A stretch of 37,577 nucleotides of DNA from IMG/VR virus record IMGVR_UViG_2529292717_000013; one strand, written 5' to 3'. The notes below the pieces were generated by a model. The model was not told where the DNA came from. It saw only the letters and a program-made list of their open reading frames with translations, and made no database searches. A program made the translations under genes and the position numbers. Shown piece by piece: positions 4,077 to 36,324 of this stretch (within the stretch, counting starts at the first letter, position 1; every line of letters begins with the position of its first letter). Origin of the DNA: a virus. Its lineage: Duplodnaviria > Heunggongvirae > Uroviricota > Caudoviricetes.

Positions 4077-4280
4077 ATGGCAATTAAGCATTTTCCTGTC
4101 GTTCGTTTTACCTCCAGAGGGCGGGAATACGAAGTCGACGAACGCCTGATTACCACAATCGACAAACACCGTTCAGAAAAGGATGCACATCACATCTATC
4201 TCACTGACGGCACTTACTTCTGCGCCACGAATGTGGTGCGGGTGAACCTTATCCGACAGGTACAGGAGTCACGCAGATGA
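4077..4280 (+). CDS. hypothetical early protein
   Basis: 67-aa ORF with a strong RBS (AAGGAGG) upstream. Confidence 0.5.
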   Translation: MAIKHFPVVRFTSRGREYEVDERLITTIDKHRSEKDAHHIYLTDGTYFCATNVVRVNLIRQVQESRR

Positions 4281-31429: not shown

Positions 31430-31585
31430 AGCTTCAGCCCCTTGTATCCGTTAAATGATTCGGCAACAATCATCACCCACCACGCGCGTAATCTCACCCC
31501 TGCGCCGTTCTCCCGCCACGGCGACAACAAAAAGCAGTACCCCCCTCCGCACGCACATGCGACCATGCCGCACAGGGAGGGAAAG

Positions 31586-32689
31586 ATGACCGACACCACC
31601 ATGCAATTGCTCAGTCAGGGCACAGACCCCGTGAAAATGCCGGATTTTGATATTCTCGCCGAGGGTAAAACGCTGTCCGGCGTGGCAGAACGCCTGATGA
31701 GCCTGTCACTGACCGACAACCGGGGATTTGAGGCGGACCAGCTCACCATCACGCTGGATGATGCCGATGGCCAGTTGCAGCTACCGCCACGGGGCGCGCG
31801 TCTGACGGTTCTCATTGGCTGGAAAGGAGAACCGCTGACAGAAAAAGGCACTTACATTGTTGATGAAATCGCTCACGAAGGACCGCCGGACAGGCTGACT
31901 GTTTCAGCCAGAAGCGCAGATTTTCGGGATGAATTTAACGTTAAACGTGAGGTGTCCTGGCATGATGTGACCGTTGAGCGTGTGGTATCCGCCATCGCTC
32001 ATCGGTACGGTCTGAAACCGCAAATCAGCGAAATGCTGATGGATATCGAAATCGACCACGCCGACCAGACCGAAGAAAGCGACATGTCCTTCTTACGCGC
32101 ATGGCGGAAATGCTGGGCGCAATCACCACGGTAAAAAGCGGAATCTGTTATTCATATGCCGGCGGTGGCGTGAACGCACAGGGCCAGCCGTTGCCATCGT
32201 TCGCCATCACCGCAGCAGGGCGATCGCCATCAGTTCCGCATTGCTGACCGCGAAGCGTATACGGGGGTACGCGCTTACTGGCTTGATCTTAATTACGGGA
32301 AAAAGAAAAAAGTCAGCGTGAAACGCCGCAAACCGCCAAAACCCAAAAAGGAGAAAAGCAGCAGCCGTGAAGGTGATTATATGGAAGGCGCGGAAGGAAA
32401 TGTGTTTGTGTTACGCAAGACTTATCAGAACGAGCAGGCAGCAAGACGCGCAGCGGCGGCAAAGTGGCAGCAGCTACAACGCGGAGCCGCATCATTCTCC
32501 ATCACACTGGCACGTGGACGAGCAGAACTCTACCCCGAAATGCATGGCACGGTAACAGGATTTAAAAGCGAGATTGATAATCAGGACTGGATTATTGCAA
32601 AAGCCGGGCACACCATTGATAACAGCGGCTTTACCACGCAGCTTGAGCTTGAGGCAAAAATCCCGGAATGGATAGCGGAAACAGAGTGA
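31586..32689 (+). pseudogene. D: tail protein D (late control gene D family); compensating pair of frame changes at about 32095-32225
   Basis: Start at the ATG after a GGGAGGG RBS (MTDTTMQLLSQG...); conserved segments in frames 2, 1, 2; C-terminal part is track ORF 32318..32689. Confidence 0.8.
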
Positions 32690-32731: not shown

Positions 32732-32992
32732 ATGTTCCGTTGTCCGCTTTGTGGCGCATCTGCCCGTATCCGCACCAGTCGTCCGGAAAATGATTCAAAC
32801 ACCGTGCGGCAAAAGTATTACCAGTGTAACAACCTGGAATGCGGCATAAGTTTCTCAACACTGGAAGCTTTCCATAAATTCACATCGAAACACGCCTCCG
32901 GCGTTCACTCATCAGAAGGTATCCCGTGGCATGAGCTGCCAGCTTCACACAGGGGAAACAATCAGATGAGTTTGCCTTTATCTCAGAATTAA
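32732..32992 (+). CDS. ogr: Ogr/Delta-type zinc-finger late transcription activator
   Basis: 86 aa; MFRCPLCGASARIRTSR...YYQCNNLECGISFSTLEAF matches the Ogr C-x2-C...C-x4-C pattern. Confidence 0.85.
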   Translation: MFRCPLCGASARIRTSRPENDSNTVRQKYYQCNNLECGISFSTLEAFHKFTSKHASGVHSSEGIPWHELPASHRGNNQMSLPLSQN

Positions 32993-33182
32993 CAGGCAGA
33001 ATTGCCGGAGTAACAAAAAAGCGATAGATTACGCGCGGGTGCCTTTCGGCTGATGGTCGGAGGGAATACCCGAAGGCCAGATGTGGAAAGGCCCCGGAAA
33101 ACATTTCTGTTTAACCGAGGCCCTAACCGTCTAACCTTAGCAAGTGATAGGTTAGCGCCTCCCTGAAAAAGGAGCAAGCGCT

Positions 33183-33323
33183 ATGTCGCAAAAATCGCTT
33201 ACGGCCATCACGTTCTGCGTGACGGCAATCCTCATCATCTGGATGCTGCACGGTTCGCTGTGCGAAATACGGATGAGCTTCTGGGGAGCGGAGTTTGCGG
33301 CGTTCTTACAGTGTAAGCAGTAA
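33183..33323 (+). CDS. hok: Hok/Gef-family type I toxin (small membrane protein)
   Basis: 46 aa (below the track cutoff): MSQKSLTAITFCVTAILIIWMLHGSLCEIRMSFWGAEFAAFLQCKQ, with N-terminal TM and SLCEIR / AAFL motifs as in Hok proteins. Confidence 0.7.
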   Translation: MSQKSLTAITFCVTAILIIWMLHGSLCEIRMSFWGAEFAAFLQCKQ

Positions 33324-33385
33324 GGAAACCGCGACGGGGGAGCAATCCCCCGTCAATCGGTTGCCAGGGTAAGGTCGATAAGGCA

Positions 33386-33396
33386 CCCTATCTCAC
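33386..33396. repeat. left copy of the 11-bp direct repeat CCCTATCTCAC (putative target-site duplication)
   Basis: Abuts the left inverted repeat; identical copy at 34896-34906. Confidence 0.5.
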
Positions 33397-33510
33397 CAAT
33401 GCCGTTCAGTTAGTTAAGGAATTGAGGTTCGATAGCCCGAACCTCGCGCAGAGGCAATATGACCGAAAGCCTGATTCCTTAATGCCCAAGATGAGTCTCT
33501 ATTCATAAAA
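33397..33510. repeat. left terminal inverted repeat of the cassette
   Basis: CAATGCCGTTCAGTTA...ATGAGTCTCTATTCATA; internally folds as TTAAGGAAT...[GAGGTTCG-ATAGCC-CGAACCTC]...ATTCCTTAA. Confidence 0.6.
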
Positions 33511-33732
33511 GCGCTTAACTACTCGACATTGGCGGTGTATCCCCCGCATTGTCTGAATGCCGCCTCTTACCTTTCGCGGTCAACTGACGACTTCTAGTTC
33601 TAGAACGCCTTGATTTTTTGTACTTGTACATTGAAAAATAACCATAAATTGTTAGCCTGTGCAGTAGACTCAGTGGCGGTAACTGGTCAGCATGAAGTGT
33701 AAAGTGAATAACGAAGCTCTAAAATTATAGGG

Positions 33733-34566
33733 ATGGTCATGAATAATAAGCTAAAGGTAATTGAGTTAAATAGTCTTGATCTGTTTCGTAAAGAATTACT
33801 AACTACTATAAAGCCAGAGAAAGTAGAGAAATTACTTAGATGGTATCTTCAATCATATGGCGGTGTTAATTTCAAGTTCGGTTATGACAGACCAATTTTT
33901 AGAGCGCGAAAGTGCCCAAATGAATGCGGATATAATAACATCAGTGAGATATATCCCCCTCCACCAGAAAAATGTAAAATAGGCCGAATGAATGATGATG
34001 GACAAGCTATCTTCTATGGCGCTTATAGTATCGGAACAGCTTTAGCCGAAATTAATGCAAAAGAAGGGGATTATGTTCACATAGCTCACTTTAAGATGCC
34101 GGAAAATTCAGAGTCTGGAATGCGATGTTTTGCTATCGGTGAGGTCTTTAATGTGTATCACGGTGTAAATACAATTTCAATTGAAGTGTTTAATGAAATT
34201 CGCGACATCATTAGCAGAATTGGTAAGGACGACATCCGAGCTTTGCTATCATATTTGTATATGGATGCCCTTTCTGCTGAGTTGCTTAATAGTATCAATG
34301 CCCATGAGGTAAATTATATTTACTCAAGAATTTTTTGCCGTCTTCTTCTTGATAAATACCCTGATGTTGATGGCCTTATTTATCCTAGCGCTAAAATAAA
34401 AGGGGCCTCAAATATCGCTTTGCGCACAGAAACAGTTAAATCGAGAATGCATTTAGTTGCTAATCTTGTGTTTAAAGTAAATAAAATTTATCCATATGGA
34501 ATAGTAGATTTCAGTATAGTAAAACAAGCCAAAGGACATACATCAGATGGGCGCATCGTTTGGTGA
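33733..34566 (+). CDS. RES-domain protein (putative NAD+-targeting toxin-like effector), solo
   Basis: 277 aa, AT-rich; GRMNDDGQAIFYGAYSIGTALAE and DGLIYPSAKIKGASNIALRT resemble the R...E...S motifs of RES domains (recalled). No adjacent Xre-type partner. Confidence 0.5.
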   Translation: MVMNNKLKVIELNSLDLFRKELLTTIKPEKVEKLLRWYLQSYGGVNFKFGYDRPIFRARKCPNECGYNNISEIYPPPPEKCKIGRMNDDGQAIFYGAYSIGTALAEINAKEGDYVHIAHFKMPENSESGMRCFAIGEVFNVYHGVNTISIEVFNEIRDIISRIGKDDIRALLSYLYMDALSAELLNSINAHEVNYIYSRIFCRLLLDKYPDVDGLIYPSAKIKGASNIALRTETVKSRMHLVANLVFKVNKIYPYGIVDFSIVKQAKGHTSDGRIVW

Positions 34567-34726
34567 GCCAAACTTTTAGTTAGCTGATTGAAAAACCGAT
34601 GCGTCAGTTTGCACTGCATGTGGTGTATGGGAAGCGCGGGCTTGTAGTGCAGGTCATTTCAGAAGAAGCTAACGAGAAAGCTTAGACATACTGTGACTAC
34701 TAAACAAGCAGAAAGCCCGTGTTTAT

Positions 34727-34746
34727 GGGGGGGAGGGGGGGGGGGG
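34727..34746. repeat. homopolymeric tract G7-A-G12
   Basis: Read directly; lies inside the cassette just internal to the right inverted repeat. Confidence 0.7.
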
Positions 34747-34785
34747 CAATCCCCACAACAGGCGATGTCGATTAGTTAATACACT

Positions 34786-34895
34786 TGTATGAATAGAGAC
34801 TCATTTTTGTGCATTAAGGAATCAGGCTTTCAGTCATCTTGCCTCTGCGCGAGGTTCGGGCTATCGAACCTCAATTCCTTAACTGAACTACATTG
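34786..34895. repeat. right terminal inverted repeat of the cassette
   Basis: Reverse complement aligns to the left repeat with a few mismatches and one 4-bp indel. Confidence 0.6.
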
Positions 34896-34906
34896 CCCTA
34901 TCTCAC
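34896..34906. repeat. right copy of the 11-bp direct repeat CCCTATCTCAC
   Basis: Abuts the right inverted repeat. Confidence 0.5.
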
Positions 34907-35093
34907 AGCTCTAAATGCAAAAATCCCATGAAACTGTGGGTATTTCATCACACACTGACACTGCTCTACCTTTCTATATGTATCACTCTAAACCAGTTAA
35001 TCAATTGGCACTTATCAACAACAAAAAATCTGATAAAATCAAAATGTTTTGTAACAAATTTCAGCTTGTAGTGTTCCAAAGGAGACGGATTAC

Positions 35094-35426
35094 ATGGCAT
35101 TAATCAAATGTCCTGAATGCCAGAAAGAGGTCAGCGATTCAGCATTATGTTGCCCTGCTTGTGGTAAACAACTGAAAAAACTTAAGCGTTCATTTTTTGG
35201 AAAACTCATTAAATGGGCTTTTATATTTTTTAATATTTTTATGATCTATACACTTTTAGTTGGACTAGGAGGCGCTGATGAAATAATAAACAATACCACA
35301 TCCGATGCCGAAAAAGCTGGGGCAGTTATTGGTACGGGCTTAGGTTTAATTGCCATTGGAGGCTTATGGGTTATTGGCGATATCATTATCGGAATTTTAG
35401 TATTTCTTACTAAACCAAAGGGATAA
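35094..35426 (+). CDS. zinc-ribbon membrane protein (N-terminal CPxC...CPxC, two TM helices)
   Basis: 110 aa; MALIKCPECQKEVSDSALCCPACGK then hydrophobic segments; AT-rich. Confidence 0.55.
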   Translation: MALIKCPECQKEVSDSALCCPACGKQLKKLKRSFFGKLIKWAFIFFNIFMIYTLLVGLGGADEIINNTTSDAEKAGAVIGTGLGLIAIGGLWVIGDIIIGILVFLTKPKG

Positions 35427-35430
35427 TAAA

Positions 35431-36324
35431 ATGAAAAATATGATTTTTTCTATAGGTGCATTATTTATATCAATTAGTGTACTGCCTGTTCACGCAGCAA
35501 CTGAACATAAGAATTTCAATGCAGTGCTCCAGTGCCGAGCGATAGAAAACAATAAAGACAGACTTTCTTGTTACGATAAGTCAATACAACCGACTCGAAC
35601 GAAAGTTGCTGACAAATTTGAAAGCAGGGATCAATGCCCTGATGAGAAAGATGATGACAAACGTTTATCTTGTTATGATCGTTTTTTTTCTCCAACATTT
35701 ACTCCATCTGTAAACTCAAAATCTAAAACGGAAAAGCTAGTAACAACAGAGGCTCAGCAACCAAATCTTTCTGAAATATCTAAATGCCGAGCAGAAAATG
35801 ATAAAGAAACCAGACTAAACTGCTACGATAAACTATTCCCACAGGATGAAGCTGTTCAATCTGAATCACAATTAGAGAAAGCCACAGATGCAGGAAAATG
35901 GCACACGTCCATTACTACATCGCCAATTGATGATTCGAAAAATGTAATTTTATCGTTAGAAAGTGATGATTATATCAGAACTCCATTTGGAGAAGCTGTT
36001 ACTCCCACTCTGTTTATAGCTTGCCGAGAAAAGAAAACCGAAGTATTTCTTAGTTGGGATGTATATTTAGGCCTTGAACAAACCAGCATGCTGTATCGTC
36101 TTGATAAACAGAAAGCAGTTGAAAGAAACTGGCTAATATCTACAGATACAAAGGCTGTTTTTTATAAAGGTAATGATATTGATTTCATAAGAAAACTTGC
36201 CAACTCACATAAAATGTACACAAAAATAACCCCCTATAATGAAAGCCCTGTAAGTGCAACTTTCAATTTAAGCGGCCTGTCAAATGCACTAAAACCGCTT
36301 CAAGATGCTTGTAACTGGAAATAG
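35431..36324 (+). CDS. secreted protein with three RL(S/N)CYD(K/R) repeats
   Basis: 297 aa; signal peptide MKNMIFSIGALFISISVLPVHAA; repeats DRLSCYDK, KRLSCYDR, TRLNCYDK; AT-rich; 4-bp gap to the upstream gene. Confidence 0.55.
   Translation: MKNMIFSIGALFISISVLPVHAATEHKNFNAVLQCRAIENNKDRLSCYDKSIQPTRTKVADKFESRDQCPDEKDDDKRLSCYDRFFSPTFTPSVNSKSKTEKLVTTEAQQPNLSEISKCRAENDKETRLNCYDKLFPQDEAVQSESQLEKATDAGKWHTSITTSPIDDSKNVILSLESDDYIRTPFGEAVTPTLFIACREKKTEVFLSWDVYLGLEQTSMLYRLDKQKAVERNWLISTDTKAVFYKGNDIDFIRKLANSHKMYTKITPYNESPVSATFNLSGLSNALKPLQDACNWK

Follow-up and report, generated by a model that had tools for sequence, protein, structure and literature searches.

A transposase-less cassette with IS4-type ends carries a solo RES-domain gene in a P88-like temperate phage of Escherichia coli

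The cassette, its phage setting and its empty sites

The element that hosts the cassette, sampled here in a 37.6-kb stretch of DNA (the window), is an infectious P88-like (P2-family) temperate phage or E. coli prophage, and the cassette occupies its accessory region, between the hok/sok locus and attP (the ogr–attP interval). In phage P88_4B11, for example, the order runs gpD, ogr, hok, cassette, zinc-ribbon gene, TagO-like gene and int. The cassette consists of two inverted arms around a 1.23-kb core, which holds one gene, coding for a RES-domain protein, with its own upstream region, and the whole is bracketed by an 11-bp direct repeat (Table 1).

Table 1. Features of the cassette and of the adjoining hok/sok locus, in window coordinates
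Feature	Position	Strand	Basis or remark
hok/sok locus (3′ boundary is the insertion target)	33037..33396	+	RefSeq annotation
11-bp target-site duplication CCCTATCTCAC, left copy	33386..33396		occurs once in empty sites
Left arm, IS4-type MITE-like unit, 135 bp	33397..33531	+	gapped alignment; folding; end-motif match
Upstream region, presumed promoter and 5′ UTR	33620..33738	+	~110 bp conserved in arm-less Lelliottia orthologue (alignment)
RES-domain gene, long form, probably 275 aa	33739..34566	+	mechanical ORF starts at 33733
Weak terminator-like hairpin overlapping RES stop codon	34558..34573	+	
Poly-G tract of variable length, then GGGG-GCAA-TCCCC hairpin	34727..34746	+	
Right arm, IS4-type MITE-like unit, inverted, 133 bp	34763..34895	-	gapped alignment; folding; end-motif match
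11-bp target-site duplication CCCTATCTCAC, right copy	34896..34906		abuts right arm

Within the hok/sok locus the hok coding sequence lies at 33183–33323 (RefSeq annotation), the 3′ element AAGGCACCC (33380–33388) is complementary to the 5′ element GGGTGCCTT (33038–33046), and an Rfam match to sok (E 6e-8) falls below the gathering score. More than 1000 other hok loci are homologous to this one up to 33396 and no further, and this break is the edge of a widespread hok module. The same break was considered as the phage attR and rejected: in the phage record, the zinc-ribbon and TagO-like genes on the far side of the cassette still belong to the phage cargo, and attP follows them.

An earlier note on this DNA described identical 11-bp direct repeats at both ends, and exactly two copies of CCCTATCTCAC are indeed found in the window, each abutting an arm. 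These are also the sole matches when one mismatch is allowed, where 0.30 matches are expected by chance and two of 100 shuffles reach two. The single-repeat empty sites that the note asked for exist as well: E. coli NR1430 and 124 other complete E. coli genomes (125 in total), together with four phage records, carry a hok-to-zinc-ribbon junction in which the cassette flanks are joined with one CCCTATCTCAC, and PhiR44_2, 500465-2 and Shae_phiSM are among the phages with such a site. Comparison with the empty site sets the duplication at exactly 11 bp, and an exact repeat that is single in unoccupied sites is the mark of transposition. With inverted ends, a passenger, one outer duplication and an empty site, and without a transposase, the cassette fits a non-autonomous composite or mobile insertion cassette; its anatomy, duplication, empty sites and position inside the phage are direct observations.

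A cassette with both arms is present in 66 E. coli genomes, and in 66 of 66 it sits at one insertion site, so that the search for other copies of the inverted repeat, as proposed earlier, recovered many cassettes and no second location. Occupation of a single site suggests one old event, and nothing indicates that the cassette is mobile at present. Moreover, among the real empty sites none comes nearer than 94% identity to the reconstructed one; this and the uniform location give no hint of movement after the founding insertion, although about half of E. coli genomes contain IS4. The E. coli cassette thus looks like one old insertion that is now carried by the phage.

The core offers few other landmarks. 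The segment had been singled out as AT-rich, and GC content is indeed lower inside the cassette (0.34–0.40) than in the phage structural genes (0.50–0.57), but the downstream phage cargo genes are equally AT-rich, so composition does not set the cassette apart. A consensus promoter scan gave no strong plus-strand match for the RES gene, and its promoter is therefore a presumed one; an AGGGA Shine–Dalgarno sequence precedes the ATG at 33739. Alignment with arm-less orthologues shows homology as far as about 50 bp past the RES stop codon. Further downstream, the poly-G tract has a different length in each of seven copies compared, and the hairpin that follows it resembles the hairpin after hok (repeat D7).

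Arms with IS4-type ends

The arms are inverted repeats far beyond chance. They were initially put at about 105 bp and about 92% identity, of which the repeats themselves stand, at a greater length (135 and 133 bp) and about 90% identity. A repeat search aligns 33412–33489 with 34807–34884 (78 nt, 96% identity) plus flanking pieces (I2 and I7), and gapped alignment carries the homology, with two small indels, over both arms in full (Table 1), to the tip of the inner terminal repeats, where it ends. Both arms fold, as previously described, into nested hairpins (-18.2 and -16.9 kcal/mol; z -2.5 and -2.3). Each arm has, at its outer and inner ends, inverted copies of an IS4-type repeat that pair when folded: the left arm has CAATGCCGTTCAGTTA[GTTA]AGG at its outer end and CAATGTCGAGTAGTTAAG (reverse complement) at its inner end, and the right arm has CAATGTAGTTCAGTTAAGG (reverse complement) and CGATGTCGATTAGTTAAT, respectively. 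All four ends match AATGNNGNNNAGTTAAG, two of them with two mismatches, each at most 1 base from the arm boundary.

Searches of 5426 E. coli genomes, PLSDB plasmids, INPHARED phages, IMG/VR, JGI metagenomes and GTDB representatives yielded neither a solo arm nor an autonomous IS with these ends. Specifically, the arm alone, searched in sensitive mode against the E. coli genomes, returned the two known arms of each of the 66 cassettes and nothing else, and the whole cassette had no match among PLSDB plasmids. A gapped pattern of both arm ends, run over IMG/VR and JGI metagenomes, returned no solo MITE and no autonomous IS, only the same cassette at four loci and a one-armed Enterobacter-type version. 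The latter has a left arm only, 142 bp long, whose own two ends are identical at 15 of 18 positions, and its prophage shows neither a right arm nor a second copy of the flanking 11-mer. One further candidate, the only match of the arm 20-mer TCAGTTAAGGAATTGAGGTT in GTDB (one genome per species), came from an AT-rich Vampirovibrio MAG and was set aside as chance, there being no further similarity.

Comparison with the IS4 of K-12 suggests where such ends come from. Over their first 18 nt, the arm ends are identical to K-12 IS4 end A at 13–16 of 18 positions, and the inner motifs are as close to the complete 18-nt IS4 end (13–15 of 18) as the outer ones are; the two ends of K-12 IS4 are themselves identical to each other at 16 of 18. 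The end consensus of the IS4 subgroup is -AATR--------WTW----, with direct repeats of 10–13 bp (De Palmenaer 2008, Table 1, PMC2266710). The 11-bp duplication lies inside that range, and AATG at positions 2–5 with TTA at 14–16 occurs in three of the four arm ends and in both ends of the Enterobacter arm, while the right inner end of the window cassette starts CGATG, one mismatch to the consensus. The cassette is thus like K-12 IS4 (insG) in its terminal 18 nt and in its duplication (12 bp for the K-12 copy), and unlike it in having no transposase gene and no similarity past about 20 nt of the ends. As the similarity is confined to those 20 nt or so, the source would be a relative of IS4 and not IS4 itself. 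RES is the sole gene between the ends and no DDE transposase with a YREK motif is encoded there, so that this is a non-autonomous element rather than an IS.

We read the cassette, with a probability of roughly 70%, as a non-autonomous composite of two IS4-derived MITEs (IS4 family, IS4 subgroup) with a RES cargo. Each arm is a short non-coding unit with IS-family terminal inverted repeats, as a MITE should be. Dispersed solo copies with duplications of their own, a second mark of MITEs, were not seen in our searches: the arms occur only in the cassette or in the Enterobacter remnant, and no target duplication belonging to either arm was found. As there is no solo arm and no autonomous IS, it is by structure alone that the arms present themselves as formerly independent MITEs.

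A classical mobile insertion cassette would share much of this structure: one IS4-subgroup IS with long (~135 bp) structured ends, in which the RES gene replaced the transposase gene and the inner motifs are subterminal binding sites or hairpin elements. The lack of a solo arm in any search suits this derivation, MIC231 provides a precedent within the IS4 family (PMC2266710), and end B of K-12 IS4 is a hairpin in which the terminal repeat is directly followed by its inverted copy, so that inverted subterminal copies may be normal there. However, the arm homology ends at the tip of the inner repeat, and the inner motifs resemble the IS4 end just as the outer ones do, which is expected of complete miniature elements; the divergence of the arms (~10%), a weaker point, is above what is usual for one recently degraded IS. 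We consider derivation from one IS somewhat unlikely.

Elements of the composite kind are already known. The TIME-COMPs, composites of two Tn3-derived miniature elements, have an experimentally proven architecture (Szuplewska et al. 2014, PMC4133298), and the cassette resembles them in its two transposase-less miniature copies around an unrelated core, in its one outer duplication and in needing a transposase in trans; in TIME-COMP1, too, the arms point in opposite directions and are not quite identical (PMC4133298). In contrast, TIME-COMPs have Tn3 ends and a 5-bp duplication, their transposition has been demonstrated with trap plasmids and solo TIMEs exist, whereas the present cassette, with its IS4-subgroup ends and longer duplication, is known from sequence alone. 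Mobile insertion cassettes are similar in their inverted repeats, passenger genes, flanking direct repeats and want of a transposase (PMC2266710; PMC5444012). Two examples are MIC231, an IS231/IS4-family derivative in Bacillus cereus, hence of the same IS family, with 10–12-bp duplications (PMC2266710; PMC5444012), and the qnrS2 cassette of Aeromonas plasmids. MIC231 is bounded by the ends of one IS231-type element and belongs to the Firmicutes, whereas the cassette has IS4-subgroup ends, terminal repeats on both sides of each arm, an enterobacterial phage host and a RES passenger. Within the literature that was searched, there is no direct precedent for an IS4-derived MITE composite or for a solo RES defence gene.

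The RES protein

The longest ORF in the cassette runs from 33733 to 34566, and its start is probably the ATG at 33739, as in all homologues and RefSeq. It is the sole cargo, as the earlier note had it, with probably 275 aa in place of the 277 aa given there, and the ORF scan bears out that neither a transposase nor an Xre-type antitoxin is encoded inside. The assignment to RES, which had been made from R/E/S motifs and would have fallen with the lack of a RES fold, is upheld: residues 77–232 match Pfam RES (PF08808) at 46.7 bits against a cut-off of 23.2 (E 4.5e-12), and the protein has the RES/ART (ADP-ribosyltransferase-like) fold. R85 (in a GRMN motif), Y95, E106 and S219 are invariant in 26 homologues; in NatT, a solved toxin, R82 is among the catalytic residues. 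A profile (HMM) search of PDB sequences gave no match even at E <= 10, which makes the fold comparison the only link to solved RES toxins. The protein has no match in PADLOC-DB 2.0 at E <= 0.1, no family in PHROG and nothing informative in NCBIfam.

The gene is under purifying selection (dN/dS 0.08–0.20), and 681 full-length relatives (50% clusters) are found at E <= 1e-10. Arm-less orthologues occur in Lelliottia, Citrobacter, Aeromonas and an E. coli/Salmonella conjugative-type element (with relaxase and TraD genes), among others, so the inverted repeats are not conserved flanks of the gene, which would have told against mobility. The RES gene is frameshifted in phage P88_4B11 (LR595891 and its RefSeq copy), which is the only sequenced phage record with the cassette.

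In the Xre–RES systems (MbcTA, ParST, NatRT, P. putida Res–Xre and VPA0770/0769) an HTH/COG5642 antitoxin gene lies upstream, whereas the cassette has none: no ORF for an antitoxin (HTH plus toxin-binding domain) is found in the 200 bp upstream of the RES gene or elsewhere in the cassette. The protein also exceeds those toxins by about 100 aa and has two helices at its N-terminus and a helical insert near residues 150–208. It could still be half of a toxin–antitoxin pair, with a small RNA or micro-ORF in the cassette, or a gene elsewhere in the prophage, as antitoxin, and so form an addiction module that stabilises the prophage as hok/sok does. Characterised RES toxins are all neutralised by a partner (PMC11535050), some 110 bp before the gene and 50 bp after it are retained even by orthologues without arms, and the cassette adjoins another post-segregational killer, hok/sok. 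Against this, the cassette has no other ORF of at least 40 aa and no Rfam family, no neighbour of the RES gene is conserved across nine other contexts, and the sole Xre-type protein in the window is a phage repressor-like gene (2050–2454). A hidden partner thus seems quite improbable, and a toxin or anti-phage role for the solo protein is a candidate one.

Proposed origin and significance

That the inverted repeats instead bound an invertible (phase-variable) segment, or reflect a recombination artefact, is very improbable: repeats of 133–135 bp could support inversion by homologous recombination and a variable poly-G tract lies inside, but the copies in 66 genomes, in the phage record and at four IMG/VR or metagenome loci all run collinear with the window over the element and both flanks, no inverted form being seen, and inversion does not sit with the exact duplication and single-copy empty sites. 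The cassette as a composite of two IS4-derived MITEs, in contrast, agrees with the earlier proposal of a transposase-less unit mobilised in trans, which gains support from the empty sites and from the orthologues that lack the repeats. We propose that an IS4-subgroup transposase acting in trans would have used the two outermost ends, and that the unit would have been pasted into a staggered 11-bp cut at the 3′ boundary of hok/sok, in a single insertion event in E. coli, after which the cassette may have spread passively with its phage.

By its fold and conserved residues, the RES protein may be an NAD+-consuming toxin of the MbcT/NatT/ParT/Res type. Its retention by selection without a linked antitoxin suggests that it stays inactive until triggered and acts as a conflict effector, which would serve the lysogen or the phage, for example through abortive infection or exclusion of other phages. 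What we infer here comprises the identity of the acting transposase, the past of the arms as independent MITEs, the enzymatic activity and the role in defence.

As variable cargo in a P2-family prophage, with a possible action against competing phages, the cassette is like the P2-like ‘moron’ loci and defence hotspots (Rousset et al. 2022, PMC9122126). It is unlike them in its ogr–attP location, in its apparent arrival by transposition and in a cargo of no known defence activity. The hotspots in question are reportedly at other P2 map positions (the Z/fun and tin/old regions).

A broader proposition, which we regard as doubtful, is that the long-form antitoxin-less RES proteins (~270–320 aa; 681 clusters at 50% identity) act as immune effectors, each encoded by one gene and depleting NAD+ once triggered, and would be the first RES-based anti-phage system. 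If so, the cassette would show that such effectors are moved between temperate phages by paired IS4-type miniature elements, and that defence cargo can be gained by transposition and not by recombination at hotspots. In any case, this is a sizeable uncharacterised RES subfamily that is selected for without a linked antitoxin, and the prophage-borne solo RES gene is an obvious candidate for testing, with natural controls in the related cassette-free phages PhiR44_2 and 500465-2 and in the frameshifted copy of P88_4B11. The filled and empty sites provide a clean natural record of the entry of a transposase-less IS4-type composite with a toxin gene into an infectious temperate phage, and transposition by such a composite is a seldom documented way for phages to gain cargo.

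Insertion site in a P2-family phage

The cassette, a transposase-less unit with IS4-type ends, lies at the 3′ edge of the hok/sok locus of a P88-like phage, where its insertion duplicated 11 bp. The window corresponds to an E. coli prophage of the P2 family, and in the Xuanwuvirus P88_4B11 (LR595891, 37.1 kb) the gene order gpD, ogr, hok, cassette, zinc-ribbon gene, TagO-like gene and int places the cassette within the phage genome, in an accessory region between ogr and attP, such that the phage itself carries it. A phage–host junction was suspected here, since more than 1000 E. coli matches stop exactly at 33396, and was rejected: they come from further hok modules, located on plasmids and in P2-like remnants elsewhere in the chromosome, and the hok module ends where the homology breaks.

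Features of the window around the cassette and at the prophage ends
Feature	Position	Remark
integrase	1-1002	minus strand
tail genes, then gpD	gpD ~31570-32689	upstream of ogr
ogr	32732-32992	Pfam Ogr_Delta
hok/sok locus	33037-33396	downstream of ogr; precedes cassette
sok match	33037-33196	Rfam
5′ element GGGTGCCTT	33038-33046	within hok/sok locus
hok CDS	33183-33323	within hok/sok locus
3′ element AAGGCACCC	33380-33388	within hok/sok locus
direct repeat, left copy	33386-33396
left arm	33397-33531
RES ORF	33733-34566
poly-G tract	34727-34746
right arm	34763-34895	inverted
direct repeat, right copy	34896-34906
zinc-ribbon membrane protein gene	35094-35426	after cassette
VasI/TagO-like gene	35431-36324	after zinc-ribbon gene
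flk	36582 onwards	host gene

The earlier note read the 11-bp direct repeat at both cassette edges, CCCTATCTCAC, as a target-site duplication. The repeat finder recovered both copies and no third in the window (chance expectation with one mismatch, 0.30), and unoccupied sites bear the reading out. Specifically, the same prophage end in E. coli NR1430 has the zinc-ribbon gene directly after hok, with a single CCCTATCTCAC and the same sequence on both flanks. This uninterrupted junction is found in 125 of 5426 complete E. coli genomes, as well as in phages PhiR44_2, 500465-2 and Citrobacter phage Shae_phiSM, while 66 of the 5426 carry the cassette with both flanks (full 1701-bp query, 98-99% identity); filled and empty sites together show the pattern left by an insertion that duplicates an 11-bp target. 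Because all 66 copies share one site, and the reconstructed empty site of the window lineage has no real match above 94% identity, the insertion looks like a single event that is not recent.

Within the hok/sok locus, the 3′ element AAGGCACCC is the exact complement of the 5′ element GGGTGCCTT. Fold-back pairing of 5′ and 3′ ends is expected of hok mRNAs, and the complementarity looks like such pairing. The target duplication covers the last three bases of AAGGCACCC, and the left copy stays intact; hok transcripts in filled phages may now extend into the structured left arm.

Two further observations concern the surrounding genes. The zinc-ribbon and VasI/TagO-like proteins are phage cargo (PHROGs 6586 and 1848); their genes also occur with an ogr-hok fragment on the ETEC plasmid NZ_CP023347, where an 86-bp deletion between CTCAC microhomologies adjoins the duplication sequence. 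Against three close relatives the window lacks seven single bases in gpD, which leaves the gene as two ORFs. The cause is either assembly indel errors or decay of this prophage copy, and homopolymer lengths in the window are to be read with that in mind.

Arms with IS4-type ends

Reading of 33200-35100 and the repeat finder both recovered the inverted repeat around a single long ORF that the earlier note had described. The AT-rich core (GC 0.34-0.40; the adjacent phage cargo genes are as AT-rich) and, on folding, the nested hairpins in each arm (z ~ -2.4) were likewise confirmed. The proposed arm length of about 105 bp was too short, as gapped alignment gives the longer homology tabulated here, at ~90% identity; close to its outer end the left arm has 4 extra bases (GTTA). 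Between gene and right arm lies a run of G residues, G7 A G12 in the window, whose length ranges from 5 to 20 nt and differs in every copy compared; slippage, phase variation and sequencing error at the homopolymer are candidate causes. The GGGG-GCAA-TCCCC on the 3′ side of this tract is similar to the hairpin after hok (33336-33350).

The 11-bp duplication suggested a comparison with IS4, whose K-12 copy has a 12-bp duplication and the ends TAATGCCGATCAGTTAAG and TAATGCCAGTCAGTTAAG. On the outside, away from the RES gene, the cassette ends are CAATGCCGTTCAGTTA[GTTA]AGG and CAATGTAGTTCAGTTAAGG; against expectation, the two arms also proved IS4-like at their inner ends, which read inwards as CAATGTCGAGTAGTTAAG and CGATGTCGATTAGTTAAT. 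Over the first 18 nt the arm ends match IS4 end A at 13-16 positions, where the two IS4 ends match each other at 16/18. The motif AATGNNGNNNAGTTAAG has two zero-mismatch matches in the window, each within 1 base of an arm boundary, against ~0.005 expected by our own estimate, and the remaining two arm ends match it with two mismatches. The ends are also compatible with the IS4-subgroup consensus, -AATR--------WTW----, and 11 bp lies inside the subgroup's 10-13-bp range of direct repeats (PMC2266710). The homology between left and right arms ends at the inner-repeat tip, and the duplication surrounds the whole unit only, neither arm having its own. Given IS4-type ends on both sides, the fit to the consensus and the stop at the inner tip, each arm is built like a complete miniature element derived from IS4, and the cassette like a composite of two of them, mutually inverted.

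Alternatively, the arms may be the extended, structured ends of a single IS that has degraded; end B of K-12 IS4 also forms a hairpin at the IS end, reading CCAGTCAGTT AAGC AACTGACTGG (4091-4122 of the K-12 stretch compared), a terminal repeat followed directly by its own inverted copy. The composite type of element is already known. TIME-COMP elements have the same architecture, shown experimentally, but are built from Tn3-derived miniature elements (PMC4133298), and MIC231 is a precedent within the IS4 family for a transposase-less passenger cassette (PMC2266710).

The RES-domain cargo and its relatives

The RES gene probably starts at ATG 33739, which follows an AGGGA Shine-Dalgarno and gives the 275 aa found in RefSeq and all homologues. 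Its RES-like character, proposed earlier from motifs, is confirmed by Pfam RES (46.7 bits; cut-off 23.2), and a confident AlphaFold2 model (26 homologues; pLDDT 89.6, pTM 0.86), for which the nine best Foldseek PDB matches are all RES toxins, has the RES fold; HMM search of PDB sequences gave no match, which points to a distant subfamily. Residues invariant in the 26-homologue comparison include R85 (GRMN motif), Y95, E106 and S219/K221, at the level of sequence the Arg-Tyr-Glu-Ser pattern expected of RES domains. Relative to canonical RES toxins (145-190 aa), the predicted model has two extra N-terminal helices and a helical insert at ~150-208. NatT has an inserted ‘Flap’ with regulatory use (PMC11535050), and by this likeness a regulatory role for the additions is a reasonable guess.

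The gene is under purifying selection (dN/dS 0.08-0.20 against four orthologues), and 681 clusters passed E <= 1e-10 in a profile search of 1.84 billion representatives, those listed being mostly 260-330 aa and matched over most of the profile. PADLOC and PHROG gave no match, and NCBIfam none that was informative. No transposase or antitoxin-like ORF was found in the cassette, in agreement with the earlier note, nor any neighbouring gene shared across nine genomic contexts; no antitoxin gene is linked to RES. Just one sequenced phage record has the cassette, LR595891, which also exists as a RefSeq copy; there a 1-bp deletion in a C-run (equivalent to window 33961) frameshifts RES, so the gene is dispensable for phage growth; the frameshift is compatible with a cost. 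Five further copies set against the window have RES intact.

An Enterobacter cloacae P2-like prophage has a related version, which encodes RES at 89% aa identity and likewise follows closely on ogr, with a complete 142-bp left arm (own two ends matched at 15/18) and the same arm-to-gene junction as in E. coli. Its flanks differ, hok is absent, and neither a right arm nor a second flanking 11-mer copy was found in this prophage. In E. cloacae P2-like prophages this one-armed version lies directly 3′ of the ogr terminator; it is a recombinant, or else the element has become associated a second time, independently, with the ogr-attP region of P2-like phages. Arms are absent altogether from RES orthologues at 57-83% identity in Lelliottia, Citrobacter, Leclercia, Buttiauxella, Aeromonas, Neptunomonas and Rheinheimera, and in a conjugative-type element (relaxase, TraD genes) of E. 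coli and Salmonella. For the one aligned as DNA, from Lelliottia, similarity runs from ~110 bp upstream to ~50 bp downstream of the gene and no further; what the IS4-type ends captured as a transferable unit is thus the gene together with its control region. The 57%-identical paralogue of the conjugative-type element is widespread in E. coli (274 contig-index blocks) and adjoins a MobA/MobL relaxase; a 176-aa ORF 250 bp upstream of it is missing from all other contexts.

Mobilization and possible function

The arm occurs in the 66 E. coli genomes, exactly two per genome, in P88_4B11 alone among phage records, and in IMG/VR and JGI metagenomes only as the same cassette or the Enterobacter relative; 72,556 plasmids gave no match, and a 20-mer match among species-representative genomes was dismissed as chance. 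None of these collections yielded an autonomous partner. Roughly one in two E. coli genomes has IS4 (2480-2687 of 5426), yet there is no second cassette site, which leaves IS4 a possible helper; the original helper was probably an IS4 relative from another host. The arms would once have been independent MITEs, and the unit would have moved by cut-and-paste through an IS4-subgroup transposase acting in trans.

The earlier description and interpretation stand, and to them we add the IS4-subgroup assignment, the two-miniature-element anatomy, the location in an infectious phage, one old insertion in the population (66 filled against 125 empty genomes) and a broad family of long-form solo RES proteins. 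The RES protein may act by NAD+ phosphorolysis or hydrolysis, or by ADP-ribosylation; it would be latent until triggered, and its benefit may lie in an abortive-infection, exclusion or addiction function.
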